DNA from: Minisyncoccia bacterium
Lineage (GTDB): Bacteria; Patescibacteriota; Minisyncoccia; SW-4-49-11
Length of the DNA: 64,000 nucleotides
Assembly: GCA_044356325.1 (NCBI GenBank)
Contig: JBIKWJ010000002.1
Span: 94,327-158,326 of the forward strand
Reading direction: 5' to 3'
In this document: positions 2,890 through 41,810 of the stretch, one piece after another
Layout of the letters: every line of letters begins with the position of its first letter
How positions within the stretch are numbered: position 1 is the first letter of the stretch
Position numbers and translations under genes: made by a program
Notes under the pieces: model-generated
The model's database searches: none
Seen by the model: only the letters and a program-made list of their open reading frames with translations
Told to the model about the DNA's origin: nothing

Positions 2890-3045
2890 CAGAGGGGTAA
2901 ACCCTCTGCTACGAAAGTCCTCCTCCGTCACCTTACGGTGACACCTCCCCCAAGGGAGGACAACCTATTGTCCCTCGCTGGCGAGGGGGGTACCGCTTGC
3001 GGTGGGTGTGGACGGGCGACTGAAAGGTCGCCCCTACGAGAATAC
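2890..3045. repeat. Mosaic hairpin array (families D, G and C)
   Basis: Contains gtcctcctccgtcaccttacggtgacacctcc, cccaagggaggac, ccctcgctggcgaggg and gggcgactgaaaggtcgcccctac. Confidence 0.8.
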
Positions 3046-6262: not shown

Positions 6263-6427
6263 GTATATCTCATCTTATTCAGAATTCCACCCTGTCAGGC
6301 AAGCCTGCCACCCCTCAAGAGGGGAATATATAAAAATGTACTGTACGAAAAATTCCCCTCTTGAGGGGTGCCCGTAGGGTGGGGTGGAATAACGGGCGAC
6401 TGAAAGGTCGCCCCTACACTACATAAT
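6263..6427. repeat. Mosaic hairpin array (families L, B, A and C)
   Basis: Contains gtatatctcatcttattcaga, ccaccctgtcaggcaagcctgccacccctcaagaggggaat, aattcccctcttgaggggtgcccgtagggtggggtgg and gggcgactgaaaggtcgcccctac. Confidence 0.8.
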
Positions 6428-7090: not shown

Positions 7091-7720
7091 TTATCCCAAA
7101 TGGGCATGATCATTCCAGGTAATAATATTCCAGTCTTTTTGATCTTCATCAAATTGCATCCAAACTATTCCCGTATTACTCATAACTAAGTTATTAGTAA
7201 CCACTTTGGCTTCTTTTGCTGTCACATGAGACCCAAATAAACGATACCAGACCAAACAATGTAGGAAATTCTTATGGGTTACGATAATAATATTATCTTC
7301 TTCCCTAGACTCAATAAATTCAAAGGCTTTTTGAGCTCTTAATTTTAAATCTTCAAAATTTTCCTCATCAGAATGTCTATAATCTGATATTTCCCAATTA
7401 TCTGCAATTTCTTTATCTATAGCTTTTAATTCTTCCAGCTCTTTACTCTTTTCTTCTTGAATAGATGGTCTTTTTTTCTCAACAAATAATTCGTTTTCTT
7501 CAATAGGCAAATTAACAATTTTAGATATATATTTAGCAGTATCATAAGCCCTTGCATAGGGACTTGTTATAAGTAAATCCGCTGAGATATTATTAAACCG
7601 ACTAGCTATTTGCTGAGCTTGCTCATGACCTAATTCAGATAATGGGATACTAGCTGATTGATATATCCGCAATGCATTTCCCTCTGATTGTCCATGGCGC
7701 ACAAAATATATATTTTTCAT
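7091..7720 (-). CDS. Histidine phosphatase family protein (phosphoglycerate mutase-like)
   Basis: FVRHGQSEGN catalytic motif near the N-terminus. The track start (7822) runs through the tRNA trailer element and is trimmed to the ATG before MKNIYFVRHG. Confidence 0.75.
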   Translation of the reverse strand: MKNIYFVRHGQSEGNALRIYQSASIPLSELGHEQAQQIASRFNNISADLLITSPYARAYDTAKYISKIVNLPIEENELFVEKKRPSIQEEKSKELEELKAIDKEIADNWEISDYRHSDEENFEDLKLRAQKAFEFIESREEDNIIIVTHKNFLHCLVWYRLFGSHVTAKEAKVVTNNLVMSNTGIVWMQFDEDQKDWNIITWNDHAHLG

Positions 7721-7852
7721 ATGTGGATCTGACTGGGATACAAACCAGACTCTCGTCTTAGGAAACCCACGTTTTCCCAACCTTCCTAGACAGGAAACTG
7801 CCGTTTCCCGACCCCTTCCCAACTGGTTCGCTCCTATATTATTAATTTACTG
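7721..7852 (-). other. tRNA-associated trailer element: two GC hairpins plus a degenerate duplicate of the tRNA-Ala 3' end
   Basis: 7724-7757 tggatctgactgggatacaaaccagac resembles the tRNA 3' end tggacctgactgggatcgaaccagcc (about 80 percent). Between them lie ggaaacccacgttttcc and ggaaactgccgtttcccgacccc, the same element found 3' of tRNA-Arg. Confidence 0.6.
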
Positions 7853-7925
7853 TGGACCTGACTGGGATCGAACCAGCCACCTCCTCGGTGCAAGCGAGGC
7901 GCTCTACCAAATGAGCTACAGGCCC
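7853..7925 (-). tRNA. tRNA-Ala (anticodon TGC)
   Basis: Manual fold of GGGCCTGTAGCTCATTTGGTAGAGCGCCTCGCTTGCACCGAGGAGGTGGCTGGTTCGATCCCAGTCAGGTCCA. It has the G3:U70 pair, anticodon loop CTTGCAC and T-loop GGTTCGATCC. Confidence 0.85.
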
Positions 7926-8714: not shown

Positions 8715-8985
8715 ACTTTTGTCTACGATGTATCTCATCTTATTCAGAGATAGGAAGAATAATAGATTGGGAGTGATGTTTTCGTAGCGGAGGGTTTATC
8801 CCTCCACTTCGTAGAGGGGGGTAACTTAACTGTCCTCCTTTGGAGGAGGTGACCCCTCCCATACTTCAGTTTGGGAGGGGTCGGAGGTGGATAATAAGTA
8901 GTCTATATTTTAACTAAAAATTAAAACTCTATCCACCCTCCCCCTGCGGGTACTCCCTCCGAAGGGAGACAAGTATCTGTGGCTA
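8715..8985. repeat. Mosaic hairpin array (families L, K, D, J, E and F)
   Basis: Contains tgtctacgatgtatctcatcttattcaga, cgtagcggagggtttatccctccac, gtcctcctttggaggaggtg, cccatacttcagtttgggaggg, ggaggtggataa ... ctatccaccc and ctccctccgaagggagac. Confidence 0.8.
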
Positions 8986-9307: not shown

Positions 9308-10648
9308 CTACACCCCCTGCTTATTTTGCAATATTACTTTTAACACCTCTTCTTTACTAGTAGTGACTGTGAATAAACATAAGTCTTTATTATTAATAGT
9401 TCGCTCCTCTTTATCCAAAACTTCTCTCATATATTTTACCAGTGGTGCCCAAAATTCATCATCATAAAGAATTAAAGAAATAGGATCTGCTTTATGAGTC
9501 TGGACGAGGGTTAAAACTTCGAATAACTGATGCAATGTACCCAAACCTCCTGGGCAGAATAGATATTGATTAGTAGGTCCTGTTAAGATAAATTGCCTTG
9601 TAAAGGGGAATCTAAAGTGAATAGAATCACTTACATAATTGTTCATTGTTTTTCCTGCTTGATGCAAAAGAGTTGCAAAAGCTGGTTTTCCGGCTTCAGC
9701 AGAGGCTTTATTAGCTGCCTCAGCGATTCCAAAACCTCCTCCTGTGAGAATACTAAAGTCATATTTGATTAATTCCTGTGCAATGACATAGGTATCCTGA
9801 TAATAATGACTATCTTGTGATACTTTATTACTTCCGAGTATTGTCACATTTTTAGGTAAAGATTCCAAGAATTCAAGCCCTTCTACTAATTCCGCCATAA
9901 TCCGGAATATTCTCCAGTTTATACTAGAGATAGCATTAGTATTAGTCATATTATCTAGAAAATTAGGATGATCCTCTGTGTGTTTGATAATCTCATAAGC
10001 CTCTTCGGCAGTTTCTACTATATGTAGCATTTCTAAATCCTCAGGCTTAATGGCTCCAAAAATTTGATGACAGGTGTCTTTTAAGAAGCTTACCAAAGGA
10101 GTCCAAAACTCCACTCCCACCAAAATCACTGGCACTTTTTGAGTAAATCCCAGAGCCATTTCATTTAAAACTTGGAATAATTCATCCAATGTCCCATAAC
10201 CTCCTTGGAAATATACAAAAGCCTGCGAAGGGGTGGTAAGCATTACTTTACGAGTAAAGAAATAACTAAATTCTACTGAATCTGTCACATAAGGGTTAAT
10301 TTTTTGTTCTATTGGAAGCTCAATCCCGAGCCCAATAGAATCACCTTTTACTTGAAAAGCCCCACGATTAGCAGCCTCCATAATACCAGGTCCTCCTCCT
10401 GTAATCACAGTATAATTATTGAGTCCTAATAATTCCCCTAATTTACGTGCTTTTATATAATATTGATCATCTTCATGAGTACGGGCTGAGCCAAATATCG
10501 TAACTTCATTTTTGTATTTTGCCATCAAATCATAACCCTCTACAAATTCCGCCATTACCTTGAATAATTTCCAAGAATCTGTTTGGGCGAGCTGATAGGG
10601 AGCTCCTATGGCGTCTTGAAGAGTTTTGAGTTTTTCGGTATATGCCAT
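9308..10648 (-). CDS. Tandem-duplicated LOG-family protein (two TIGR00730-like cytokinin-riboside-5'-phosphate phosphoribohydrolase-type domains)
   Basis: Two copies of the GGGxGxMEAANxGA ... PGGxGTLxELFE pattern: TGGGPGIMEAANRGA and GGYGTLDELFQ, then TGGGFGIAEAANKA and PGGLGTLHQLFE. Start trimmed to MAYTEK. Confidence 0.8.
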   Translation of the reverse strand: MAYTEKLKTLQDAIGAPYQLAQTDSWKLFKVMAEFVEGYDLMAKYKNEVTIFGSARTHEDDQYYIKARKLGELLGLNNYTVITGGGPGIMEAANRGAFQVKGDSIGLGIELPIEQKINPYVTDSVEFSYFFTRKVMLTTPSQAFVYFQGGYGTLDELFQVLNEMALGFTQKVPVILVGVEFWTPLVSFLKDTCHQIFGAIKPEDLEMLHIVETAEEAYEIIKHTEDHPNFLDNMTNTNAISSINWRIFRIMAELVEGLEFLESLPKNVTILGSNKVSQDSHYYQDTYVIAQELIKYDFSILTGGGFGIAEAANKASAEAGKPAFATLLHQAGKTMNNYVSDSIHFRFPFTRQFILTGPTNQYLFCPGGLGTLHQLFEVLTLVQTHKADPISLILYDDEFWAPLVKYMREVLDKEERTINNKDLCLFTVTTSKEEVLKVILQNKQGV

Positions 10649-10674
10649 AATTTTGTTTTGAATAATTGAGTGGG

Positions 10675-10944
10675 TGTCTCCGACCCCTTTCAGGTTCAAT
10701 CGTTTAATTCTTTGCTTTTAATTTCTCATCCGATATCTGATTGCATCCTATTCCGCAGTGTCTCCGATTGGGATCTCAGTCGCTATCGCTCTTTGGAAAC
10801 CCACGGTTTCCAACACTCGGAGTAAACTCCTCGCTGCCTTCCTTCACGGGGAACTCCCGTTCCCCGACCCCCTCCCAGTTCGATCCTTTAAGTATTTGCT
10901 TTTAATTAATATTTCGATTTCTGGTTTTTTACTCGTTTGCGGGG
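10675..10944 (-). other. tRNA-Arg trailer complex: exact 18-nt duplicate of the tRNA 3' end, an extra junction copy, and hairpin elements ggaaacccacggtttcc and ggggaactcccgttccccgacccc
   Basis: gtgtctccgattgggatc occurs at 10758-10775 and again as the true tRNA 3' end at 10945-10962. gggtgtctccga joined to cccctttcaggttcaatcg at 10672-10700 looks like a tRNA/element junction. About 100 bp upstream of the tRNA end is also duplicated. Confidence 0.65.
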
Positions 10945-11019
10945 GTGTCTCCGATTGGGATCGAACCAATAACCTACAGCTTAGAAGGCTGTTGCTCTAT
11001 CCGATTGAGCTACAGAGAC
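10945..11019 (-). tRNA. tRNA-Arg (anticodon TCT)
   Basis: GTCTCTGTAGCTCAATCGGATAGAGCAACAGCCTTCTAAGCTGTAGGTTATTGGTTCGATCCCAATCGGAGACA. Anticodon stem is ACAGC/GCTGT with loop CTTCTAA. Confidence 0.8.
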
Positions 11020-11084: not shown

Positions 11085-11215
11085 GTCGTAGGGGCGACCT
11101 TTCAGTCGCCAGTCCACACCCGTCACTTCGTGACACCCTCGCCAGCGAGGGACAGTTATTTTGTCCTCCCTTGGGGGAGGTGGCACGAAGTGACGGAGGA
11201 GGACATTCCTCACAA
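11085..11215. repeat. Mosaic hairpin array (families C, M, G and D)
   Basis: Contains gtaggggcgacctttcagtcgcc, gtcacttcgtgac, ccctcgccagcgaggg and gtcctcccttgggggaggtggcacgaagtgacggaggaggac. Confidence 0.8.
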
Positions 11216-11230
11216 TTTATAATCAATCCA

Positions 11231-13234
11231 CTACCATTCAGGATCATAGTCAGTATAAGTGAGAGATAATTGCTCTAAGAGATGATCTGGTATCTCGGTA
11301 ATAAATCGTGAAGAGGGATTGGATTGAATTTGCCCAAATATACGCCTGAGTTGAGTATATGTCATATATAGCTTATCCTTGGCTCTGGTAATACCAACAT
11401 AACATAGTCGACGCTCTTCCTCTAATTCTTTATGGGAGATAAGACTTCGAGAGTGGGGGAGTATACCTTCTTCCATACCAATCATAAATACCACCGGGAA
11501 TTCAAGCCCCTTAGCAGCATGATATGTCATCAAAGTGACCGCTTGAGTAGCCTGCATTCCATCAATATCAGATAATAAGGCGGTTTCTTGCAAGAATTCA
11601 TATAAAGCCTCCTCCACAGGGAGATTATCAAATTTCTGTGTTACCGTGAACAATTCTTCAATATATTCCATTCTAGCTTCATTTTCTTTGCTTTTTTCCC
11701 AATGGCTAGTATATTGGGTGATTTTCAAGATATCTGCTACCAATTGAGATAGGGTATACTTATCTCTCTCAAAAGCCCCCTTAAGCTCAAAAATTTGCTC
11801 ACAGAAGACCATTATTCCTCTTCGGGCTCCTCCAGTAATCTTGAGAGAATATTTGTCCGTATGGGTCAATAATTCGAGCAAGTCGATATTTTGCTCATTT
11901 TCATTACTTTCAGAATAGGCGTGTAGGATTTTGTCTATACTAGCCTTACCGACTGATCGCTTTGGCACATTGATAATACGCCGAAAAGAAGCCGTGTCAT
12001 TGGTATTATATAAGAATTTGAGATAGGCAAGGAGATCTTTGATTTCGGCTCTCTCATAGAATTTAGTACCTCCCACAATTTGATAGGGGATTCTCAGCTG
12101 CAAAAAGGCTTCTTCCAAAGCTCGAGATTGAGCATTAGTGCGATACAAACAAGCAAATCCTGACAAAGTATATTTACCTTTACCCACCAAGTCTTTGATG
12201 GTACGAGCCACAAATAAACTTTCTTGATATTCGTTTTCCGCCTCCACCAAATGAATTAATTCTCCCGATTCTTTATCTGTCCAAAGATTTTTATCTTTTT
12301 TCTGGGTATTTTTATCAATTACCTGATTGGCAGCATCCAGAATAATTTGGGTAGAGCGATAATTCTGCTCTAATAATACCACCTTGGTATCTTTATAATC
12401 TTTTTCAAAATTCAAGATATTCTTGTAGTCCGCCCCTCTCCAAGAATAAATAGCCTGAAAATCATCTCCCACCACACAAAGATTCTTATATTTATGTGCC
12501 AATAATTTTACCAATTCATATTGAGCCTGATTGGTATCCTGATACTCATCAATCATAATATAACGGTATCTATCCTGATAACGCGCCAAGACATCTGCAA
12601 ATTCTTTGAATAATATTACCGTATTCATAATAATATCATCAAAATCCATGGCATTATTCTTGCGTAATTGCTTCTGATATTCCTGATATAATTCAATAGC
12701 TAATTCCTCGAGGGGAGTAGTGGGATTATAGTCAGCAAATTGACTAGCAGTAATGAGATTGTTTTTAGCCTTAGAGATAATATATTGTATAGAAGCTGGT
12801 TTAACCTGATCTTTTGGAATATCTCGTTTTTTGAGCAAATCCTTGATAATATTCTGGCTATCTGTAGTGTCATAAATCAAAAATGACTTATCATAACCCA
12901 AAGCCTCAGCCTCACGGTGAAGAATATTCAGACAAACGGAGTGAAAGGTCCCTACCATAGGCATAGCAGGCACATTATCTCCAAAAGAGGTCTCAAGCAA
13001 ATGTTTTACTCGCTCCTTCATCTCTTTTGCCGCCTTATTAGTAAAGGTTACCGCTAAAATACTATAGGGAGATATTCCCTGAGCAATCATATAGGCAATA
13101 CGCTTAGTAAGCGTAGAAGTCTTCCCTGAACCCGCTCCAGCTAATACCAAAACAGGACCTTCTATGGTCTGGGCTGCTTCTAATTGTTTATCATTAAGTC
13201 CTTGGAGAATAGGATGAATTTTGTCTTTTGGCAT
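11231..13234 (-). CDS. pcrA: ATP-dependent DNA helicase PcrA/UvrD
   Basis: Q-motif and Walker A AGAGSGKT, plus TFTNKAA, DEYQDT and the C-terminal helicase motifs in UvrD order. 667 aa. Confidence 0.9.
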   Translation of the reverse strand: MPKDKIHPILQGLNDKQLEAAQTIEGPVLVLAGAGSGKTSTLTKRIAYMIAQGISPYSILAVTFTNKAAKEMKERVKHLLETSFGDNVPAMPMVGTFHSVCLNILHREAEALGYDKSFLIYDTTDSQNIIKDLLKKRDIPKDQVKPASIQYIISKAKNNLITASQFADYNPTTPLEELAIELYQEYQKQLRKNNAMDFDDIIMNTVILFKEFADVLARYQDRYRYIMIDEYQDTNQAQYELVKLLAHKYKNLCVVGDDFQAIYSWRGADYKNILNFEKDYKDTKVVLLEQNYRSTQIILDAANQVIDKNTQKKDKNLWTDKESGELIHLVEAENEYQESLFVARTIKDLVGKGKYTLSGFACLYRTNAQSRALEEAFLQLRIPYQIVGGTKFYERAEIKDLLAYLKFLYNTNDTASFRRIINVPKRSVGKASIDKILHAYSESNENEQNIDLLELLTHTDKYSLKITGGARRGIMVFCEQIFELKGAFERDKYTLSQLVADILKITQYTSHWEKSKENEARMEYIEELFTVTQKFDNLPVEEALYEFLQETALLSDIDGMQATQAVTLMTYHAAKGLEFPVVFMIGMEEGILPHSRSLISHKELEEERRLCYVGITRAKDKLYMTYTQLRRIFGQIQSNPSSRFITEIPDHLLEQLSLTYTDYDPEW

Positions 13235-13904: not shown

Positions 13905-14110
13905 CTAAAATTCCCCTCGTTGAGGGGTGGACAGCTTCGCTGGACGGGGTGGAGTACTTTTATATTCGTAGGGTTTTTGTCCCTCCTATATTTATTTAGA
14001 AAAAACGACCTCTCAGTCGCCCGAAACCTAACCCCAAAACTTGACAAAAAAACACTACTATTATAAAATATATTTACATTTGGCGTTAGCCACGTCCCTC
14101 GTTTGCGAGG
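13905..14110. repeat. Mosaic hairpin array (families A, H, C and G)
   Basis: Contains aaaattcccctcgttgaggggtggacagcttcgctggacggggtggag, cgacctctcagtcgcccg and gtccctcgtttgcgagggc. Confidence 0.75.
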
Positions 14111-15439: not shown

Positions 15440-15575
15440 AAGATTCCCCTCTCCACCTACGGTCGATAAATTGAGGGCTTTCGTCCCTCCCATACTTTAG
15501 TTTGGGAGGGGGTCGACAGCTTCGCTGGACGGGGTGGAGTGCTTTTGTATTCGTAGGGGCAACCTTTCAGGCTCC
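15440..15575. repeat. Mosaic hairpin array (families A-like, J, H and C)
   Basis: Contains cccctctccacctacggtcgataaattgagggc (inverted copy at 41790), cctcccatactttagtttgggaggg, gctggacggggtggag and cgtaggggcaacctttcaggctcc. Confidence 0.75.
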
Positions 15576-18639: not shown

Positions 18640-18850
18640 TACTATTAATGTCCTCCTTTCTACCTACGGCAGATAAATGGAGGAGGTGGCACGGAGTGCC
18701 GGAGGTGGATTGAGCTAAAATTCCCCTCTTGAGGGGTGACAGGCTTGCCTGGCGGGGTGGAAAAACAAAATATTAATAATAACAAAACCCTTCCACCCCG
18801 TCTCCCTACTATGTAAACATAGCAGGAATCCACCCCTCAAGAGGGGAATT
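18640..18850. repeat. Mosaic hairpin array (families D/I, E, A and B)
   Basis: Contains gtcctcctttctacctacggcagataaatggaggaggtggcacggagtgccggaggtggat, aaattcccctcttgaggggtgacaggcttgcctggcggggtgg and ccacccctcaagaggggaattt. Confidence 0.8.
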
Positions 18851-18862
18851 TAATACCACCCT

Positions 18863-20394: not shown

Positions 20395-20460
20395 CACGAT
20401 GGATTCCGGGGTTCTATTCAGTTGTAGTTACGTATATTTACCAGACCTCGCCAGGTCTAG
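20395..20460 (-). terminator. Tandem terminator hairpins (ccccggagatcacgatggattccgggg; agacctcgccaggtct)
   Basis: Two GC stems 3' of CDS 20465-21391 on the minus strand. Confidence 0.5.
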
Positions 20461-20464
20461 GAGC

Positions 20465-21391
20465 TCATGAGAGGAGATGTTTCTCCACCACGGCCACAAC
20501 CTCGTCGATAGTGAGCTTCGAGCTCACACCCTGTGGCGAGCCACCGATGGTCGGGGAACCACCCCAACCAGCCTCGAGAGTGTCGAGCTCCGCAAGCGCC
20601 GACTTGATGTCCGCGAACCCGCCAGAGAACTGGCAGATCGTAAACTTCTTGCAAGGCTCGCTCGGCCCCTGCCTGAAACTCGGGTTGAGCGCGACTACTA
20701 CTGGAGCAAGGGCATACCCAATGCTGAGAGCAGCACGATGCGTACTCTCTACCACCGCAATGAGGCCAAAGGAGACCATCTCGTACCTGATAGTTCCGCT
20801 TTCGAGAGCGGTGATCATGTCGATCCGCTCCCTCTCGACCTGTGTGCGATACTGTTCGGGTTCCTCACCCGCGAGCAGCCACAACTCCATCGTGGCAACA
20901 CGGTCAGCCAGCGGAACCCTGAAGTCCATGACTGCTGCCGCGATCGCCGCGAGATGGCGGGAAGACTCGGCCGTCGCCGTCTCCTCTATCCACGGGTTGT
21001 CCCGGGTCGGGAGGGGCTTCGGGCCAGAGTAGCCGCCACGCGCGAACTTGTCCGAGGTGGCGACCATCGTGACTCGCTCCATCGCGGGCTCGAGGCTTTC
21101 GCCATTCGCCCGGAGATTGAAGAGCGCCATCGCTCCGACCGCGTCGAGATCGGCGCGAACCGTCGCGAGAGTCGAGCCCTCGGGCGGAAGCTCCGCCGTC
21201 AGCGCGTCCTCGATGGCCGCACGATTGGCGTCACCGCCCGTGTGCTGGGGGTCGATGTTGAAGGTGCAACGCTCTGCGAGCGAGGGCACTGTCACTTCGA
21301 TCCCATAGACGGGGTTAGCGAACACCTTGTCGTTGGCCTCCGTGGCAGCCGAAATGTTGCGGGGGTCGAGAGTTGCGAAGCTGTAAACCAT
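20465..21391 (-). CDS. Cassette ORF, hypothetical protein (about 308 aa) of strikingly high GC (foreign-looking)
   Basis: Minus strand chosen because the conserved promoter at 21427-21457, GGAG 9 nt before ATG (MVYSFATLD) and the terminators at 20395-20460 are all minus-oriented. All six frames are open, as expected in high-GC DNA. Confidence 0.5.
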   Translation of the reverse strand: MVYSFATLDPRNISAATEANDKVFANPVYGIEVTVPSLAERCTFNIDPQHTGGDANRAAIEDALTAELPPEGSTLATVRADLDAVGAMALFNLRANGESLEPAMERVTMVATSDKFARGGYSGPKPLPTRDNPWIEETATAESSRHLAAIAAAVMDFRVPLADRVATMELWLLAGEEPEQYRTQVERERIDMITALESGTIRYEMVSFGLIAVVESTHRAALSIGYALAPVVVALNPSFRQGPSEPCKKFTICQFSGGFADIKSALAELDTLEAGWGGSPTIGGSPQGVSSKLTIDEVVAVVEKHLLS

Positions 21392-21426
21392 GATAATGAA
21401 CTCCAAATGATTGGATTACGAAAACA

Positions 21427-21457
21427 ACTATATCACATTTTCCTATTTTTGTCAATA
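21427..21457 (-). promoter_or_regulatory. Conserved cassette promoter (TTGACAAAAATAGGAAAATGTGATATAGT)
   Basis: TTGACA, 17 nt, TGnTATAGT. An AT-rich leader lies upstream. Confidence 0.6.
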
Positions 21458-21589
21458 GGTGTTGTGTGTATTGTGTTTTATTCACTTTAAACACACCTAT
21501 TTATTACCTTTATTGCTTGACTTTATTGATATTTTTATTTTGTTATAGTTTTTTGTTTTTATTGGAGTTTATATAGTGAGTGAGGTGAA

Positions 21590-22040
21590 TAATACTTGTA
21601 TTTCGTAGGGGCGACCTTTCAGTCGCCTATTTGTTCTAAAAATTCCCCTCTTGAGGGGTGCCCGTAGGGCGGGGTGGATAAAATATATTACTGAATTTTA
21701 CTCAAACACCATAGTATAGTTTTAATAACTATCCACCTCCGCCGTCGCAAATGGGATTTGCTCCTGTGAAACCTCACAGATTTGGCCAACCTTCCTCCAC
21801 GGGAAAACTCCCGTTTTCCCGACCCCTTTCCCGTGCCACCTCCTCCATTTATCTACCGTAGGTAGAAAGGAGGACAGTATATTTTTCCACCCCGTCCAGC
21901 GAAGCTGTACACCCCTCAAGAGGGGAATTTAGCTCAGTCCACCTCCGGTCACTCCTAGTGTGAACAAAATACCCCAATCCCTTCACAACAAAAACACGGG
22001 CAACTGCAAGATTGCCCCTACGGGTGTATTTGATAATTTT
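21590..22040. repeat. Large mosaic hairpin array (families C, A, E, tRNA-trailer-like, D/I and H)
   Basis: Contains cgtaggggcgacctttcagtcgcc, aaaaattcccctcttgaggggtgcccgtagggcggggtggat, ctatccacctccgcc, ccaaccttcctccacgggaaaactcccgttttcccgacccc (the same element as 3' of the tRNAs), gtgccacctcctccatttatctaccgtaggtagaaaggaggac and ccaccccgtccagcgaagctgt. Confidence 0.8.
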
Positions 22041-23536: not shown

Positions 23537-25366
23537 ATGGCATCCAAGCAAGCACAAACTAATCCAGAAATTGCTGATTTCCTCAAGGGCCAAAATACTC
23601 TTCGAGATCTTTTGGCACCCGCGAGTATTTTGGTAGATCCCAAATATATTCAAATTGGATCTCAATTTGCTCGTACTATTTTTGTGATGACATATCCTCG
23701 ATTTCTCGTCACAGGATGGTTTAGCCCACTTATTACTCTTGATTATGTCTTGGATATTTCTATGTTCCTCTATCCTATGGATAGTGGGGTTATATTAAAG
23801 AATCTGAGAACTCAAGTAACCCGTTTTCAAGCTCAAATTAGTATTGCACAAGAAAAAGGTCTCGTGCGAGATCCCATGGTGGAAACCGCTTATCAGGATG
23901 CGGAGAATCTCAGAGACCAATTACAACAGGGTACTGAGAGATTTTTCCGCTTTGGGCTCTATATTACGGTTTATGCAGATAGTCTTCCTCAATTAGAGAA
24001 GAATATTTCTCAGATAGATAGTATGCTTCAAACCAAAATGGTATATTCTAAACCTTGTTTATTCCAAACTGAACAGGGTTTTCAATCGACTATTCCTCTT
24101 CTCAAAGATGATTTAGCCATTGCTAATAATCTTAATACTTCACCCCTATCTACTACATTTCCTTTTATTTCAGCTAGTATTTCCTCTAATAAAGGGATTT
24201 TGTATGGAATTAATCGCCATAATAATAGCCTTATTCTCTTTGATAGATTTTCTATGGAAAATGCCAATGAGGTTATTTTTGCCAAATCAGGAGCGGGGAA
24301 AAGTTATCTTGCTAAGCTTGAAATATTGAGGCATCTGATGCTCAATATTGATGTTCTGGTTATTGATCCTGAAAATGAATATTCTTATCTTACTGAGGCA
24401 GTTGGTGGAACATTTATCAAAATATCTCTCAATTCTAATCAACATATTAATCCTTTTGATTTACCAAATCCTCGTGATGATGAGAATCCTGCCGATTTAC
24501 TCAAATCTAATATTGCGGACTTATTAAGTATGCTCAAATTAATGCTTGAGGGGAGAAATGATGAGGACAAATTCCACGCTGAAGAAGAGGCTATACTAGA
24601 CCGAGCTCTTTATGAGACATATGCCAGCAAAGATATTAGCATTGAATCTCCTAATTATGAAAATAAAGAAATTCCAACTCTTTCTGATTTAGAAAACATT
24701 CTCAATAATATGGAGGGGGGAGAAAGCCTTGCTATTCGTCTTTCCAAATATACTACTGGGAGTTTTAGCGGGTTTATCAATGAGCCTACCAATATTAATT
24801 TTGCCAATCAGCTCGTAGTATTCAATACTCGAGATATGGAGGACGAATTACAGCCATTAGCTATGTTTATCGTAACTCAATATATTTGGAAAGAGGTAAG
24901 AAGAACTCTCAAAAAGCGTATTCTAGTAGTAGATGAAGCTTGGGTGATGATGAAGGATAAATCAGTAGCTTCATTCCTATTCTCACTCGCCAAAAGAGCT
25001 CGTAAATATTATCTTGGACTTACCACTATTACTCAGGATATTGCTGATTTTCTCGCCTCAGAATACGGAAAAGCAATTTTGACCAACTCTTCTATACAAA
25101 TTCTCCTCAAACAATCTCCTGCCTCTATAGATATTATTAAAGATACTTTTTATCTTACTGAAGAGGAAAAATTCCTTCTTCTCGAGTCAGATGTGGGAGA
25201 AGGAATATTTTTTGCGGGACTAAAACATGCTGCTATCAAAGTAGTAGCCTCATATGGAGAGGATCAGATAATCACCTCAGATCCGGAACAATTACTCAGA
25301 ATCCAGGCTGCCAAAGCTCAAATCACTGAGGAAGGAAATTCCGACCCATTCTCATTAAATTTATAA
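23537..25366 (+). CDS. virB4: VirB4/TrbE/CagE-family type IV secretion ATPase, C-terminal ATPase portion
   Basis: Walker A AKSGAGKS and Walker B VVDEAW, with the surrounding VirB4-type sequence. 609 aa. Confidence 0.8.
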   Translation: MASKQAQTNPEIADFLKGQNTLRDLLAPASILVDPKYIQIGSQFARTIFVMTYPRFLVTGWFSPLITLDYVLDISMFLYPMDSGVILKNLRTQVTRFQAQISIAQEKGLVRDPMVETAYQDAENLRDQLQQGTERFFRFGLYITVYADSLPQLEKNISQIDSMLQTKMVYSKPCLFQTEQGFQSTIPLLKDDLAIANNLNTSPLSTTFPFISASISSNKGILYGINRHNNSLILFDRFSMENANEVIFAKSGAGKSYLAKLEILRHLMLNIDVLVIDPENEYSYLTEAVGGTFIKISLNSNQHINPFDLPNPRDDENPADLLKSNIADLLSMLKLMLEGRNDEDKFHAEEEAILDRALYETYASKDISIESPNYENKEIPTLSDLENILNNMEGGESLAIRLSKYTTGSFSGFINEPTNINFANQLVVFNTRDMEDELQPLAMFIVTQYIWKEVRRTLKKRILVVDEAWVMMKDKSVASFLFSLAKRARKYYLGLTTITQDIADFLASEYGKAILTNSSIQILLKQSPASIDIIKDTFYLTEEEKFLLLESDVGEGIFFAGLKHAAIKVVASYGEDQIITSDPEQLLRIQAAKAQITEEGNSDPFSLNL

Positions 25367-30139: not shown

Positions 30140-30375
30140 TCTATTATTTGTATGAGATGATAAGATCGTAGATAAGTTATGCTTTCGTAGCGGAGGGTTT
30201 ATCCCTCCACTATTGTTCTTATGTAGGGGCGACCTTTCAGTCGCCCGTAGTGTTTTTGTACCTAACTGGCGAGTCTTTAAGTCCATCCCATACATTTTTT
30301 GGGATGGGGTGTCGATGAAATCGACGGATGTGGACAGGCGACTGCAAGGTCTCCCCTACAGAAAGAAAAAACCCT
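30140..30375. repeat. Mosaic hairpin array with an inverted pair of family-C hairpins flanking nested palindromes
   Basis: tgtatgagatgataagatcgtagataag (L), cgtagcggagggtttatccctccac (K), tgtaggggcgacctttcagtcgcccgtag at 30223-30250 and its inverted partner gacaggcgactgcaaggtctcccctaca at 30333-30360. These enclose tcccatacattttttgggatgggg and gtcgatgaaatcgac. Confidence 0.8.
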
Positions 30376-30378
30376 CGC

Positions 30379-30840
30379 TCAGCGAGGGGTGTGGGGTTGA
30401 TGAATTCTCCTTCGGAGAAAGTTCACCATAAAAATGAGTATATCAATTGAATATAAGCACAACAGTGCCAATAACATAGGAGGTAAAAAAGCCTCAATTA
30501 AGGGTATAGTTATAGACTTTTTAGTCATTATAAAAATTATATTCGCTGCATCAATAAACAGTGCAAGCCAAATAAATGCAACGAGTCCCGTCAGGGCAAC
30601 TTTTACCCAAGAATTCTTCATTGAAAGAAGCATTCCAAACATTATAATATATAATGCTGTAATTGTGATAAAATCTAAATTAAAGTACTCTTGATATAAC
30701 TGTACTGCTACTGATGTATTTAGATTTAGTACCTTTATGGTTGAGTTATAAAGTGCTGAACCCGCCAATATAGGTAATATTACGATATTCTTCACAGTTA
30801 TGAAAAATACTTGAAGAAGATTAGCTTTTGAAAGAGCCAT
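30379..30840 (-). CDS. Hypothetical polytopic membrane protein (153 aa)
   Basis: Four or five predicted TM helices. Stop is followed by ccctcgctcagcgaggg then TTTTTT. Confidence 0.5.
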   Translation of the reverse strand: MALSKANLLQVFFITVKNIVILPILAGSALYNSTIKVLNLNTSVAVQLYQEYFNLDFITITALYIIMFGMLLSMKNSWVKVALTGLVAFIWLALFIDAANIIFIMTKKSITIPLIEAFLPPMLLALLCLYSIDILIFMVNFLRRRIHQPHTPR

Positions 30841-30899
30841 GATAGCCTCCGAGGGCTGGTGAGACTTTCAAAAAATAGCATATTTATATATTTTTGTAA

Positions 30900-31190
30900 A
30901 GGGTTGATAAGTTTTTAGTAGGGGCGACCTATGTTTTAAAAATTCCCCTCTTGAGGGGTGGCTTCCTGCTATGTTTAAATAGCGGGGAGACGGGGTGGAG
31001 TGTCTTTATCTTATTTATTTTTATTTTCTTTCCACCCCGGCCAGCAGAACTGTCCACCCCTCAAGAGGGGAATTTAAGCTCAGTACAAACCTACCTCTAC
31101 ACAGTCCACCCTCCTAAATAAATATAGGAGGAACTTAAAGCTCACCCACTCGTCTACCGTAGGTAGAAGGGAGGGCAGTAAATATGCCGA
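30900..31190. repeat. Mosaic hairpin array (families C, A, H and I)
   Basis: Contains agtaggggcgacct, aaaaattcccctcttgaggggtgg, ggggagacggggtggagtg, ccaccccggccagc, ccacccctcaagaggggaattt and cgtctaccgtaggtagaagggagg. Confidence 0.8.
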
Positions 31191-31889: not shown

Positions 31890-31937
31890 TAATTATCTTA
31901 TTTTTATAGCTTATTATATATCATTTGATTTTTCCAA

Positions 31938-32135
31938 TACTTCCGAGGTCTATCTGTTTCTGCTAGAATAGCAATCACATCGATAATAGAAAAATACCAT
32001 TTTTCTTGATCAACATACCAAATACTACGAACCTGTTTTTTTCAAATAGTTTGATTGCTATATCTTTTTTCATAGAATTAGCTTAGATATATTTATTATA
32101 TCTCTTTTGTCGAGAATTGTGCTATATGCACTCAA
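31938..32135 (-). pseudogene. Truncated duplicate of the dinD-like gene's promoter and first about 50 codons
   Basis: About 200 bp nearly identical to 32818-33020. Own translation gives MKKDIAIKLFEKKQVRSIWYVDQEKWYFSIIDVIAILAETDRPRKYW then stop. Confidence 0.6.
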
Positions 32136-32142
32136 TATAATT

Positions 32143-32964
32143 TTAGTTCTTATCAATGAGCTTTTTTGCTGATATGGAACTAACAACCTTTTTTCCCGTT
32201 TTCTCCTCTATTTCCCTTCGAGTATTGCCCGCAATAGTACCACCTTGATTTGCTATGACTTTATTCTGGTCAAAGTTCTTAGGCTTTTTCTCTTTACTAA
32301 TTTCGGTAGTTGTTGCTTCTGCAAGCATATTAAGAACTAGCTCTAAGTTAGTCATATTATCTCGTAAATTCTCTTTTTTTAGATTTTTGTATTGTTTATA
32401 TGCTTTGACCGATAAACCGCTCCAAGCTCTTGTAATTTCATCCGTTAATATAGCATATTCTTGTCCCTTTTTTACTCCTCTTATATCCCACTCATCAGTA
32501 AGTTCTTTTCTTACCTCTATACTTTTAAGTCTTTGATTTACCCATTCTTTAGAATATCCCTTTTTGAGATATATCTCCATCAATCTATCTATTCCAAGCT
32601 CTGGATCTTCAATTTCATCGAGACGCTCCCGCGCAACCTGTGCTATCCATATTTTAAAAGGTTCAGCTTTAGGAGAAGGGATAGATTGAATAAGTCTAAA
32701 TAATTGCTCCGTATCAGCAACATCAGTAAGTCTTAATTTTCCATCCGAAGCTTTTATTTTCAACTGTCCGATATTTTCGGACAGTTCACTTCCTTCATTA
32801 CCAAGTTTTGTTTTGAGATCATTCCAATACTTCCGAGGTCTATCTGTTTCTGCTAGGATAGCAATCACATCAATAATAGAAAAATACCATTTTTCTTGAT
32901 CAACATCCCAAATACTACGAACCTGTTTTTTCTCAAATAATTTGATTGCTATATCTTTTTTCAT
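32143..32964 (-). CDS. dinD: DinD-like protein with N-terminal Bro-N domain (DNA-damage-inducible protein D / phage antirepressor family)
   Basis: N-terminal LFEKKQVRSIWDVDQEKWYFSIIDVIAILAETDRPRKYWNDL matches the Bro-N pattern. Length and organisation match E. coli DinD (274 aa). Confidence 0.6.
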   Translation of the reverse strand: MKKDIAIKLFEKKQVRSIWDVDQEKWYFSIIDVIAILAETDRPRKYWNDLKTKLGNEGSELSENIGQLKIKASDGKLRLTDVADTEQLFRLIQSIPSPKAEPFKIWIAQVARERLDEIEDPELGIDRLMEIYLKKGYSKEWVNQRLKSIEVRKELTDEWDIRGVKKGQEYAILTDEITRAWSGLSVKAYKQYKNLKKENLRDNMTNLELVLNMLAEATTTEISKEKKPKNFDQNKVIANQGGTIAGNTRREIEEKTGKKVVSSISAKKLIDKN

Positions 32965-33094
32965 AGAATTAGCTTAGATGTATTTATTATACTCTTTTGT
33001 CCAGAATTGTGCTATATGGATAGTATATTTTTGTAAAGGTCTTATTATTGATAATTCTCATCTTATTGAAATCTATATTATGTGTTGTTATGTA

Positions 33095-38842: not shown

Positions 38843-40285
38843 ATGGACGAGAAACAAAGAGTTTGGAACTCCGTATTAGGTGAGATAGAGCTCAATATTA
38901 GTAAACCTCAGTTTAATACCTGGATCAAAAATACTTATCCTATAAGTATGGATGAGAAAGAAATTGTAATTTGCGTGCCAAGCGCTTTTACACGGGATTG
39001 GCTTGAGAATAAATTTAATGTTACTATTCTAAACTCTATTCAAAAGATTACTGGCTCTATAAAGCGGGTAAAATATGTCGTTCAGAATACGCAAAAACAA
39101 TCCCCAAAAGCTATTCAATCTGTTATTAATCTCAAAAATAAAGAATTAAAGGAGAAAAAGTCTAAAATTGAGGAGAAAGAGAAAACCCCATCTACGAATC
39201 CCCATTATCAATATGCTGAGCCTACTATTATCCCAGACAGACCAAGTGGAACGGCTCTCTTAAAAGATAATTATACCTTTGAGAATTTTATTGTGGGCTC
39301 CTCCAATGAACTTGCTCATGCTGCGGCTCAATCAGTTGCTAATGAACCTGGAACTCGATATAATCCTTTATTCATTTATGGTGGTGTGGGCCTTGGTAAA
39401 ACGCATCTTATTCAAGCTATTGCTAATAGTCTCAATAAAAAGAATAAGAATATTCTGTATGTTACCTCGGATGTATTCATCTCAGATTTGATGAATTCTC
39501 TCAAAAATGGGCGTATGGAAGATTTTAAAGCTCGGCATAGAGCTGTTGATCTCTTGATTATTGATGACATTCAATTTATCGGGGGTAAAGAAGCTACTCA
39601 ATATGAGGTTTTCAATACCTTTAATGATTTATATGCTCATAATAAGCAAATTGTGTTTACGAGTGATAGACCACCGAGTGCAATAAAGACCTTAAATGAT
39701 AGATTAAAATCTCGATTCGAAGGGGGTATGATTGTGGATGTTGCTATTCCAGAATTTGAAACTCGTGTGGCTATTCTCAAAAGTAAATGTATTCAAAAGA
39801 ATTTTCATCTTGATGATGCTATTATTTATGTTATTGCGGAGCGTATTCGAAGCAATGTGAGAGAATTAGAGGGAGCTCTCAATAAAATTATTGGGCGAGT
39901 ACAGCTGCTCGGTACTAAAGTTACTCCTGAATTAGTAGATAAACTGATTGAGGGAGGACAAATTCATTCTCAGCGTATTGTCAATAGTGATATGATTCTG
40001 GATATAGTAGCTAATCATTTTCATATTAACAAAGCTGATATATTATCTAAAAGCCGTAAAAAAGATATTGCGATACCGCGTCAAATTGCAATGTATCTCA
40101 TTCGAGAAGAATTAAAACTCACTTTCCCAAATATTGGAGAATTATTAGGGGGAAAAGATCATAGTACAGTTATGCATGCTTGGAATAAGGTAAAAAAGGA
40201 TATTGTAACTAATTATAGCCTTGAGCAAGATATTACTCTTATTAAGAATAAACTGTATAATGAAGAAAACCCTGTAAATTCTTAG
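38843..40285 (+). CDS. dnaA: Chromosomal replication initiator DnaA
   Basis: AAA+ Walker A GGVGLGKTHL, Walker B LLIIDDIQF, sensor motifs, and the C-terminal DNA-binding domain. Confidence 0.9.
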   Translation: MDEKQRVWNSVLGEIELNISKPQFNTWIKNTYPISMDEKEIVICVPSAFTRDWLENKFNVTILNSIQKITGSIKRVKYVVQNTQKQSPKAIQSVINLKNKELKEKKSKIEEKEKTPSTNPHYQYAEPTIIPDRPSGTALLKDNYTFENFIVGSSNELAHAAAQSVANEPGTRYNPLFIYGGVGLGKTHLIQAIANSLNKKNKNILYVTSDVFISDLMNSLKNGRMEDFKARHRAVDLLIIDDIQFIGGKEATQYEVFNTFNDLYAHNKQIVFTSDRPPSAIKTLNDRLKSRFEGGMIVDVAIPEFETRVAILKSKCIQKNFHLDDAIIYVIAERIRSNVRELEGALNKIIGRVQLLGTKVTPELVDKLIEGGQIHSQRIVNSDMILDIVANHFHINKADILSKSRKKDIAIPRQIAMYLIREELKLTFPNIGELLGGKDHSTVMHAWNKVKKDIVTNYSLEQDITLIKNKLYNEENPVNS

Positions 40286-40653: not shown

Positions 40654-40688
40654 CTATATATACCACATTTTCCTAATTTTGTCAATAG
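40654..40688 (-). promoter_or_regulatory. Conserved cassette promoter (TTGACAAAATTAGGAAAATGTGGTATATA)
   Basis: Start of an about 420-bp block (promoter, AT leader, hairpin array) repeated at 41296. Confidence 0.6.
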
Positions 40689-40799
40689 TTGTTGTTATTT
40701 ATTTTTAACATTTACTATTGTCTATAGCATTATTAATTAATTTATTATTATATTTTGTTATGATTTTATATTTTTTATAGTTATGACATTATGTTTTTG

Positions 40800-41075
40800 T
40801 CCCCCTTTGCCTGCCTGCGGTAGGCAGGGAGGGGGAAGCATGAAAGGCGGGGGTGGATAAAAGTAAGTCCATATTCTAAATTTAATATTATTAGAAAATA
40901 TAAATAACTTTTATCTCTATCCACCTCCGGCACTTCGTGCCACCTCCTCCTAAGGAGGACAGAAGCTCAAATTACATACACACCCGCCGACTCTAAGAAT
41001 TTACCAATAATACTATAGTAAAATCCACCCACCCCGTCAGGCAACCCTGCCGATAGTACTTTCATATATAGAGAT
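40800..41075. repeat. Hairpin array, copy 1 of tandem block
   Basis: gtccccctttgcctgcctgcggtaggcagggagggggaagc, ggcgggggtggataaa..70 bp AT..ctctatccacctccggcacttcgtgccacctcctcctaaggaggac, ccaccccgtcaggcaaccctgcc. A near-identical array lies at 41440-41640. Confidence 0.8.
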
Positions 41076-41108
41076 ATTATATAGTTAATTGATATAGTAA
41101 ACTAAAAG

Positions 41109-41133
41109 CACTCCAACCAAGATGGAAGGAGTG
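41109..41133 (-). terminator. Cassette terminator, copy 2
   Basis: cactccaaccaagatggaaggagtg. Duplicate of 40347-40371. Confidence 0.6.
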
Positions 41134-41153
41134 CGGGGGAGTGTTTGTGAAAC

Positions 41154-41273
41154 TCAATTCACGACTTTGTCTGCCTTGTCTTGCCTGAAAAACAAGATAT
41201 GAATCAGAGCAAGGGGGGTTGCAATGATCATAGCAACTGTGACCATAACTCTGGTCGAAGAAGGAAGTTTCAT
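41154..41273 (-). CDS. Hok-like mini-ORF (39 aa: MKLPSSTRVMVTVAMIIATPLALIHILFFRQDKADKVVN), candidate type I toxin-like membrane peptide
   Basis: Own translation. The ATG lies 17 nt after the conserved -10 and the stop precedes the terminator. The alternative track frame reads through the terminator and was rejected. Resembles the Hok N-terminus MKLP..S followed by a TM segment. Confidence 0.3.
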   Translation of the reverse strand: MKLPSSTRVMVTVAMIIATPLALIHILFFRQDKADKVVN

Positions 41274-41295
41274 GACAGTAAAATGAACATACATT

Positions 41296-41328
41296 ATATA
41301 TACCACATTTATCCGTTTTTGTCAATAG
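41296..41328 (-). promoter_or_regulatory. Conserved cassette promoter, copy 2 of tandem block
   Basis: TTGACAAAAACGGATAAATGTGGTATATA. Confidence 0.6.
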
Positions 41329-41439
41329 TTATTGTTATTTATTTTTAACATTTACTATTGTCTATAGCATTATTAATTAATTTATTATTATATTTTGTTA
41401 TGATTTTGTATTTTTTATATAGGTGTGACATTATGTTTT

Positions 41440-41810
41440 TTTGTCCCCCTTTGCCTGCCTGCGGTAGGCAGGGAGGGGGAAGCATGAAAGGCGGGGGTGG
41501 ATAAAAGTAAGTCCATATTCTAAAATTTAATATTATTAGAAAATATAAATAACTTTTATCTCTATCCACCTCCGGCACTTCGTGCCACCTCCTCCTAAGG
41601 AGGACAGAAGCTCAAATGACATACACACCCGCCGACTCTAAGAATTTACCAATCATACCATAGTAAAAGCGGGCGACTGAAAGGTCGCCCCTACGAGTAC
41701 AGAAATCTCCACCCCGTCAGGCAAGCCTACCACCCCCTCCCAATATCTCTTCTCAAGAGCTAATGGGAGGGACTTAAAGCCCTCAATTTATCGACCGTAG
41801 GTGGAGAGGG
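41440..41810. repeat. Hairpin array, copy 2, plus additional modules
   Basis: Same modules as 40800-41075. It continues with gcgggcgactgaaaggtcgcccctacg, ccaccccgtcaggcaagcctacc and ccctcaatttatcgaccgtaggtggagagggg. Confidence 0.8.

Follow-up and report, generated by a model that had tools for sequence, protein, structure and literature searches.

A short element that encodes no protein adjoins two tRNA genes in the 64,000-nucleotide stretch of DNA analyzed here (the window), and its layout recurs at dozens of different genes, with the element present in some relatives and absent from others. Judging from sequence comparison, we consider it probable, if only slightly so, that this is a protein-less, non-autonomous integrative element that spreads horizontally and carries a replacement gene end.

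All five tRNA genes in the window are on the minus strand. An initial annotation of the region had singled out tRNA-Arg, whose 3′ end was noted to be exactly duplicated over 18 nt. This duplication is real, as the window contains exactly two occurrences of GTGTCTCCGATTGGGATC, one at 10758-10775 and the other at 10945-10962, for a chance expectation of 0.03. The features of this locus are as follows, beginning with the tRNA gene.

10944-11019, minus strand: tRNA-Arg(UCU), the intact target (ARAGORN; Rfam tRNA model, 71 bits)
10945-10962, minus strand: X, the proximal gene-end copy, equal to the last 18 nt of tRNA-Arg
10887-10943, minus strand: spacer S1 of the proximal element copy, 57 nt, AT-rich, directly 3′ of tRNA-Arg (sequence)
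10878-10886, minus strand: inverted arm X′ of the proximal copy, GGATCGAAC (sequence)
10776-10877, minus strand: conserved core of the proximal copy, GC-rich, with three hairpins (covariance-model matches at 10817-10876 and 10793-10813; fold)
10758-10775, minus strand: X*, which repeats the 18 nt of the tRNA-Arg 3′ end exactly
10702-10757, minus strand: spacer S2 of a second, older tandem copy (repeat family D2)
10680-10701, minus strand: inverted arm of the second copy, GATTGAAC, and the first 14 nt of its core, CTGAAAGGGGTCGG (aligns to 10864-10886)
10672-10683, minus strand: remnant of the original tRNA-Arg 3′ end, TCGGAGACACCC (sequence; empty allele of the related genome L011)
10672-10679, minus strand: AGACACCC, the part of the tRNA end that follows the truncated core

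The component that had escaped the initial annotation is the inverted gene-end copy located just 5′ of the core. At tRNA-Arg this arm, GGATCGAAC, is the reverse complement of the T-loop segment GTTCGATCC. The proximal core begins with hairpin 1 (CGGGGAAC-GGGA-GTTCCCCG), which is followed by the linker GTGAAGGAAGG and an optional middle hairpin, and then by hairpin 2 (TTGGAAACC-GTG-GGTTTCCAA) and the tail AGAGCGATAGCGACTGA. In a circle or tandem junction, the core tail (...GCGACTGA) would adjoin GATCCCAATCGGAGACAC followed by S1. The second gene-end copy starts with the last bases of the T-loop and includes one base beyond the discriminator.

The initial annotation also described a tandemly duplicated upstream segment and a tRNA/element junction copy. 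The duplication is borne out by a 66-nt repeat with 76% identity (10677-10742 versus 10861-10926, repeat family D2); the coordinates originally assigned to it (10700-10757 and 10865-10944) are approximate, and we reread the segment as the spacer plus inverted arm of two tandem element copies. The 3′ half of S2 is homologous to S1, and its first 14 nt, TGCGGAATAGGATG, are kept in the related genome L010. Likewise, gggtgtctccga is indeed fused directly to cccctttcaggttcaatcg at 10672-10700. This fusion had been taken for a recombination junction with a crossover core, and is better read as an internal deletion between TCGG repeats of the older copy. The tetranucleotide TCGG in 10672-10683 is common to the truncated core and the tRNA-end remnant and marks the deletion joint. 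Most simply, the deletion would run from the TCGG at the core start (GGGGTCGG/GGAAC) to that of the tRNA-end copy (AATCGG/AGACAC), because a deletion between two such repeats would leave the junction of GGGGTCGG with AGACACCC. By the same reasoning, 10672-10943 would most simply comprise two tandem copies of the element, one complete and the other older and internally deleted.

The remnant TCGGAGACACCC is contiguous with the ancestral 5′ leader of a fused-LOG gene (two LOG domains). As the initial annotation remarked, the start of this gene is close to the scar: its start codon (10646-10648) and the last tRNA-end remnant are 23 nt apart. The window sequence TCGGAGACACCC followed by ACTCAATTATTC... 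aligns with the empty L011 allele, matching first its tRNA end and then its flank, and therefore everything from the remnant to the present tRNA end was inserted. An empty allele in the context of the window would join tRNA-Arg straight to ...TCAATTATTCAAAAC.

A second target is found at tRNA-Ala, and a third copy of the core is located elsewhere.

7852-7925, minus strand: tRNA-Ala(UGC), the second target in the window (ARAGORN; Rfam tRNA model)
7835-7851, minus strand: spacer, 17 nt
7823-7834, minus strand: inverted arm X′, GGAGCGAACCAG, complementary to the tRNA-Ala T-arm CTGGTTCGATCC
7749-7822, minus strand: core (covariance-model match at 7757-7820, 64.6 bits)
7722-7748, minus strand: X*, a 27-nt imperfect copy of the T-arm and acceptor 3′ strand, with the altered T-loop TTTGTATC
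21766-21831, minus strand: third core copy, in a mosaic of palindromic repeats, with no adjoining tRNA (covariance model, 50.1 bits; nhmmer match)

A covariance model of the core (R1) finds these three copies in the window, at 7757-7820, 10817-10876, and 21766-21831. That a single model matches both tRNA loci on the minus strand, with E values of about 1e-10 to 1e-13, substantiates the earlier proposal that tRNA-Arg and tRNA-Ala carry the same element. In the predicted fold of the Ala copy, a closing stem forms between X′ and X*, and the start codon (ATG) of a histidine-phosphatase gene lies 1 nt beyond X*. Orthologues of the Ala spacer and arm (7823-7851) are present in the related genomes L007 and L009.

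The third core (21766-21831, minus strand) sits in the loop of a palindromic module, GGTGGCAC...GTGCCGG, which can be compared with an uninterrupted module at 18679-18720. The core may also enter pre-existing hairpins. Such modules belong to dense GC-rich palindromic mosaics that are scattered through this AT-rich genome, at 3012-3037, 6285-6420, 8780-8890, 11086-11205, 13908-13975, 15443-15560, 18645-18855, 21600-21990, 30180-31180, and 40800-41740. Among them, GTAGGGGCGACCTTTCAGTCGCC occurs in 7 copies and AAATTCCCCTCTTGAGGGGTG in at least 7. The mosaics resemble REP/BIME arrays, are unusual for a reduced genome, and hint at a RAYT-type enzyme somewhere in the genome. Other irregularities were also observed in the window. 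Positions 20400-21500 have a GC content of 0.495, versus about 0.36 elsewhere, and hold overlapping ORFs on opposite strands (20477-21490, plus; 20465-21406, minus) with no Pfam or Rfam match; this region may represent either a gene of foreign origin or a large non-coding RNA. A 374-nt direct repeat with 95% identity (40655-41023 and 41295-41668) lies between dnaA (38843-40285) and dnaN (42153-43262) and is probably part of the replication origin region. Finally, 198-nt direct repeats with 96% identity (31932-32128 and 32822-33018) flank or overlap a BRO-N-domain ORF (32143-32964, minus).

The contig that contains the window has identical counterparts in several metagenomes (a freshwater Parcubacteria/Paceibacteria population), and five related genomes with 83-87% protein identity and conserved gene order (L007-L011) permit comparison of both sites.

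Window: Arg site with one complete and one deleted copy; Ala site filled
L007: Arg site with a complete element and 50-nt exact flanking repeats; Ala site filled
L008: Arg site reduced to spacer, arm, and the initial 14 nt of the core; Ala site empty, with the ATG 3 nt past the tRNA
L009: Arg site outside the contig; Ala site filled
L010: Arg site with a 24-nt remnant and a 12-nt tRNA-end copy; Ala flank rearranged
L011: Arg site empty, ...GGAGACACC GTTCAATTATTCAAAACAAAATT ATG; Ala flank rearranged

Presence or absence in relatives, to which the initial annotation had pointed, proves to be polymorphic, with empty sites in L011 (Arg) and L008 (Ala). In L011, the ATG of the fused-LOG gene is 23 nt after tRNA-Arg. 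Spacers homologous to S1 are present in L007 and L008, and the Arg-site copies of L008 and L010 are decayed, that of L008 being truncated in the same manner as 10680-10701 in the window. Among related species the spacers have diverged and the cores are about 90-97% identical. The element copies in this lineage look old, and the conserved cores set against diverged spacers could also mean that the core serves the host.

Two further observations concern these loci. A related element with arms matching tRNA-Asp is present on the 3′ side of that tRNA gene in four relatives (L008, 11811-11872; L009, 2189-2250; L010, 11654-11715; L011, 11663-11724), and the window has palindromic repeat modules in its place. 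Moreover, protein genes begin only 1-23 nt past a tRNA 3′ end, as seen for the histidine phosphatase after tRNA-Ala and the fused-LOG protein after tRNA-Arg (window, 7718-7722 and 10646-10671; L008, about 13041-13050; L011, 9977-10003). These short gaps suggest that the mRNAs have little or no leader and might be made by tRNA processing. The tRNA/gene-start junction is preserved by the tRNA-end copy of the element.

Scanning metagenome contigs with a 23-nt core motif, GGGGTCGKGRAACNNNAGTTYCC, recovered at least 120 loci. Among the matches listed, the core lies 27-126 nt 3′ of a same-strand tRNA gene at 73 of 120 loci (about 1.3% by chance), and these tRNA targets represent at least 18 amino-acid types and at least 31 isoacceptors. 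Several further loci have tRNA-like ends that were missed by ARAGORN or are at contig edges. About 20 of the listed loci are at the ends of protein genes. The 3′-end targets include rplL, a proton-pumping pyrophosphatase gene, and an L33-like gene, among others, and antisense copies are found at the 5′ ends of dnaK and of genes for a glycosyltransferase, RNase H, and a thioredoxin-reductase-like protein. The idea of a tRNA-targeting element thus holds insofar as insertions occur at tRNA 3′ ends and are flanked by tRNA-end copies; the element is not tRNA-specific, as the same core and layout are found at protein-gene ends.

On the sense strand, this layout consists of a gene end (Xa-Xb), a spacer, X′a (inverted Xa), the core, a second gene end (X*a-X*b), and the host flank. 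At tRNA loci, Xa corresponds to the segment from the T-loop to the 3′ end, and the spacers carry a terminator in about half of the cases (judged by eye, uncounted). The T-loop of X* is regularly altered at these loci, with GTTCGAAT changed to GTGAGAT. The family core starts with the motif GGGAA and hairpin 1 (CGGGRAAC-GNRA-GTTYCCCG), continues through the purine-rich linker GTGGAGGAAGG and optional hairpins to hairpin 2 (apex AACC-GNG-GGTT), and finishes with a tail ending in CGAC. The element is about 130-190 nt in size (inserts of 100-250 nt) and has no ORF. Gene-end repeats range from 12 to about 100 nt in length, and the junctions have no common flanking motif.

We evaluated the arms and gene-end copies at the 100 listed loci with enough flank. 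The inverted match between the 30 nt preceding the core and the upstream flank beats all 20 shuffles at 72 loci, the direct second copy does so at 75, and both do so at 61. We also observed stacked or nested elements, with two or three per gene end, at L018 (1104-1227), L104 (5146-5333), L085 (7018-7137), and L017/L098. L104 exemplifies a diverged subfamily in which hairpin 1 differs (GGAGGGGGCGG-CGAAA-CCGCCCTCTCC), and the family is therefore wider than the search motif.

The R1 model, built on the short form of the core, matches 107 copies in 100 loci, often with two or three per contig. In its alignment, 98.7% of the cells are paired and 13 of the 17 pairs exhibit compensatory changes. Cells changed on both sides number 140, versus 31 in shuffles, and none of 500 shuffles reaches the observed values. 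When the 3′ partners are slid by 1-3 columns, the paired fraction falls to 14-64%. Hairpin 2 also covaries in an alignment-free check anchored on its apex, and the window copies fold into the hairpins of the family core. These hairpins have been selected for pairing as a folded nucleic acid, either RNA or single-stranded DNA. The loop of hairpin 1 conforms to GNRA in 79% of loci and to GNNA in 93%, and a GNRA loop favors RNA. GCGAAGC mini-hairpins are known for their stability in DNA, and their frequent occurrence could point to single-stranded DNA. Hairpins 1 and 2 have GAAAC/GTTTC arms in common, one of the two has a bulged A, and no transposase is known for them.

The origin of the two gene-end copies is most readily examined at protein genes. 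There, the differences between X and X* amount to 87 nt in synonymous codons and 39 nt in non-synonymous ones. For the eight loci with recognizable proteins, the differences are 68 synonymous versus 10 non-synonymous, and at the pyrophosphatase locus (L129) 15 of the 19 differences in 96 nt are synonymous. A decaying dead duplicate would be expected to show about 40% synonymous changes. Because of this synonymous excess, both copies must have evolved as working genes, one of them imported, and an old target-site duplication that later diverged is ruled out. The gene-end copies at protein genes are two alleles of functional type. Therefore, of the target-site-like duplications described initially, the flanking copies are confirmed, and their interpretation as simple duplications is not, given that protein-gene copies differ mainly at synonymous sites.

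At tRNA genes, the bases after the discriminator are informative. Comparing X with X*, 24 pairs both lack CCA, 19 pairs both have it, and 8 are discordant, with CCA in the copy only in 6 of these and in the gene only in 2. The 43 concordant pairs argue against copying from mature tRNA, and the repetition of the gene's own post-discriminator bases argues that X* was copied at the DNA level. The inverted arm fits the proximal copy better at 60 of 67 tRNA loci, but at only 17 of 33 other loci by an automatic score, which counts against the integrative reading. Where a protein locus can be judged clearly by eye, the arm again fits the proximal copy. Since X′ matches the proximal gene end, these two parts belong together.

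Core identity is 0.84 for the same isoacceptor versus 0.82 for different ones, with no clustering by target. An identity of at least 95% is reached by 3 of 10 pairs that occupy different targets on the same contig, compared with 2.4% of between-contig pairs. One such pair (L016 at a Leu gene and L086 at an Ile gene, on one 413-kb contig) has near-identical cores (at least 95%) and a variable tail that is also common to both. Near-identical cores at different targets imply that one core lineage moves within a genome while its arms change.

These observations allow us to outline how an integrative element of this type might operate. The mobile unit would be Xa-Xb-X′a-core, entering at the 5′ edge of the host Xa through recombination within Xa (12-30 nt for tRNAs), such that the working gene would keep the complete element-supplied end and the old end of the host would be displaced downstream. 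Repeated entry would generate tandem arrays, and deletion between direct repeats would yield clean loss. More speculatively, the excised form might be single-stranded, with an X′a:Xa stem capped by the core, so that an enzyme encoded elsewhere might encounter the attachment sequence in duplex form. A folded single-stranded site of this kind would explain why an inverted arm exists. Target choice would depend on the arms, not on the core. In the window, the sense strand of the element is the lagging-strand template (dnaA and dnaN are at 38.8-43.3 kb, and GC skew fits). A Pfam scan of the window ORFs of at least 120 aa and of the genes called in L001 revealed no recombinase, transposase, or reverse transcriptase. 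We infer mobility only from comparison, since no excised form was seen. Counting against the integrative reading, it gives no account of how a new arm and gene-end copy are acquired for each target. A tentative extension, which we consider less likely than not, addresses the arms directly. The core of about 70 nt with its two hairpins would constitute, as single-stranded DNA or RNA and together with an enzyme encoded elsewhere, an arm-programmed integration module whose target is set only by matched arms that are rewritten on moving. The arms would be inverted and direct copies of 10-25 nt of the target, and the gene that is entered would always be repaired. A single core lineage could in this way spread to most tRNA genes of a genome and to several of its conserved protein genes.

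Other explanations must be weighed against an integrative element. Perhaps no dedicated recombinase is involved, and the element spreads by natural transformation coupled with ordinary or homology-facilitated recombination. The gene body would then serve as the left homology arm, the second gene-end copy carried by the element would serve as the right arm, and the core might function, for example, as an RNA or as a signal for DNA uptake or recombination. Natural competence is ascribed to Patescibacteria, a scan of the window ORFs located no mobilizing gene nearby, and the gene-end copies are of two origins, all of which suit this explanation. The window also encodes an ATPase (23537-25366) with a TraG P-loop domain and weak similarity to the VirB4 family. 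We nevertheless consider transformation unlikely, as it explains neither the first insertion at each of more than 31 tRNA targets nor the inverted arm that matches the target. It would also need a retargeting step to place near-identical cores at different targets in one genome, and at 12-18 nt the right arm is very short for RecA recombination. It also seems improbable, to a somewhat greater degree, that the element is a functional small RNA gene whose X′/X* closing helix imitates the minihelix formed by the acceptor and T stems of the adjoining tRNA. Such an RNA would be cut out by tRNA-processing enzymes, its core would have a cellular function, and spread would be secondary. The strong covariation, the conservation of the core relative to the spacers among related species, and the placement of the GNRA tetraloop of hairpin 1 on the tRNA-sense strand are all consistent with this proposal, as is the fact that the downstream gene in the window would be expressed only if the element were co-transcribed with the tRNA. 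However, the antisense copies at the 5′ ends of dnaK, glycosyltransferase, and RNase H genes have no tRNA-like helix and no sense relation to the gene, and the terminator seen by eye just upstream in about half of the tRNA-locus spacers leaves no room for a promoter. Furthermore, copies decay and vanish in relatives, and there is no Rfam match.

Two additional explanations appear very improbable. Insertion via RNA by a retroelement-type process could use mature tRNA as a primer or template, and the tRNA-end copies would then correspond to primer-binding sites or to the variable duplications of target-primed reverse transcription. The exact copy does start at about tRNA position 59-60 and spans 15-18 nt, like a retroviral primer-binding site, and the length of the duplication is variable. 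Yet X* carries the post-discriminator bases of the gene instead of a post-transcriptional CCA, X′ leaves the 3′ terminus of the tRNA uncovered, the protein-gene targets and the synonymous divergence between X and X* do not fit, and no reverse transcriptase was seen among the ORFs scanned. Equally hard to sustain is the notion that the repeats are attL/attR scars of prophage or island integration, or that slipped tandem duplication was joined by chance insertion of a palindrome. Integrase-mediated integration typically leaves direct repeats of tRNA 3′ ends, and the genome is full of palindromic repeats. These scenarios, however, do not anticipate that more than 100 uniformly small loci would have the same core of about 66-100 nt enclosed by the repeats, with no integrase, no phage DNA, and no match in 2.9 million viral contigs. 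Nor do they explain the inverted arm or the occurrence at protein genes.

The element family is apparently undescribed and common in Patescibacteria. Rfam searches of the window and 10 strong members, at gathering thresholds and at E values up to 1-5, matched only tRNAs. The core motif had no match in the same viral contigs, and BLAST searches with the core against plasmid and phage collections likewise gave none. Among the literature searched in full text, there was no paper with the motif or describing such an element in Patescibacteria. One paper that treats group I introns in the tRNA genes of Patescibacteria deals with the anticodon loop and has no bearing on the element. If our interpretation is true, then Patescibacteria carry an abundant, overlooked mobile element despite their very small and supposedly repeat-poor genomes, and essential genes are entered by an element with no gene of its own by means of a spare gene end and a matching inverted arm. 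The combination of one scaffold with numerous target-specific arms suggests that targets are recognized either through base pairing or through a structure folded to mimic the target, which would have practical value for programmable DNA insertion. For genome annotation, the element gives rise to pseudo gene ends, tRNA fragments, and false attachment sites, and it alters tRNA 3′ flanks as well as the leaders of genes whose starts directly follow a tRNA.

Several known classes can be set aside. As judged from the sequence, the homing guide RNA of Type V-K CRISPR-associated transposons and the guide RNAs of TnpB/IscB do not fit the layout and lack associated genes here, and the same is true for tmRNA, split or permuted tRNAs, and T-box leaders. 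A trans-splicing or RNA-repair ribozyme, with an antisense guide, a core, and a replacement 3′ exon, is attractive for tRNA genes and rplL, and is ruled out by the antisense 5′-end sites. A MITE moved by a DDE transposase is rejected on the basis of locus-specific arms, the lack of a fixed-length duplication (12 to about 100 nt), and non-identical protein-gene copies. An IS200/IS605-derived element is rejected given that there is no flanking tetra- or pentanucleotide and long duplications are present. Similarly, the core is not a REP/BIME, as it lacks GTAG and a palindrome unit of 20-40 nt; such units form a separate family elsewhere in the window.

Among established systems, elements that use a tyrosine integrase to enter the 3′ ends of tRNA and other genes (T-loop attB), and their integrase-less derivatives, also insert in the 3′ part of a gene. 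There too, a replacement end keeps the gene intact, the old end is left as a direct repeat, and tandem accretion at one site and clean loss between repeats occur. Unlike these, the element described here is gene-less and bears a target-matched inverted arm beside its core, and one structured core is associated with dozens of attachment sequences. It has the gene-end direct repeats and the restored gene of integrase elements, and scanned window ORFs included no integrase gene or remnant in or beside it. The attC sites of integrons and the attP hairpin of CTX-phi (XerCD) offer a parallel in that two inverted arms would present a duplex site, that such sites occur at gene ends, and that structure is conserved over sequence. 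Hairpin 2 has a bulged base and the closing stem an unpaired GA-rich patch, both reminiscent of these sites. The conserved part of our element is instead the cap, its arms copy the target gene, and its use as single-stranded DNA is our inference; the scanned window ORFs included no integron integrase, and a dif-like site is absent.

REP/BIME sequences, REPINs (RAYT), Rickettsia palindromic elements, and non-coding derivatives of IS200/IS605 resemble the element in being short, non-coding, hairpin-forming, multi-copy, and located at gene ends. The host genome is rich in GTAG-type palindromes, and the ends of IS200/IS605 have two similar hairpins in the same orientation. These differ from our element, whose core contains no GTAG, whose junctions have no conserved flanking target tetranucleotide, and whose flanks are long, locus-specific direct and inverted copies, one direct copy being foreign. 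Lastly, the exon-binding sites of group II introns, the internal guide of group I introns, and the bridge or seek RNAs of IS110/IS1111 elements are similar in that a target-complementary segment changes with the target beside a structured scaffold. Our element differs from these guide-directed systems in having no intron core, recombinase, reverse transcriptase, or Rfam match, and in that its arm of 10-25 nt pairs with a second copy carried by the element itself while the adjoining gene stays intact.
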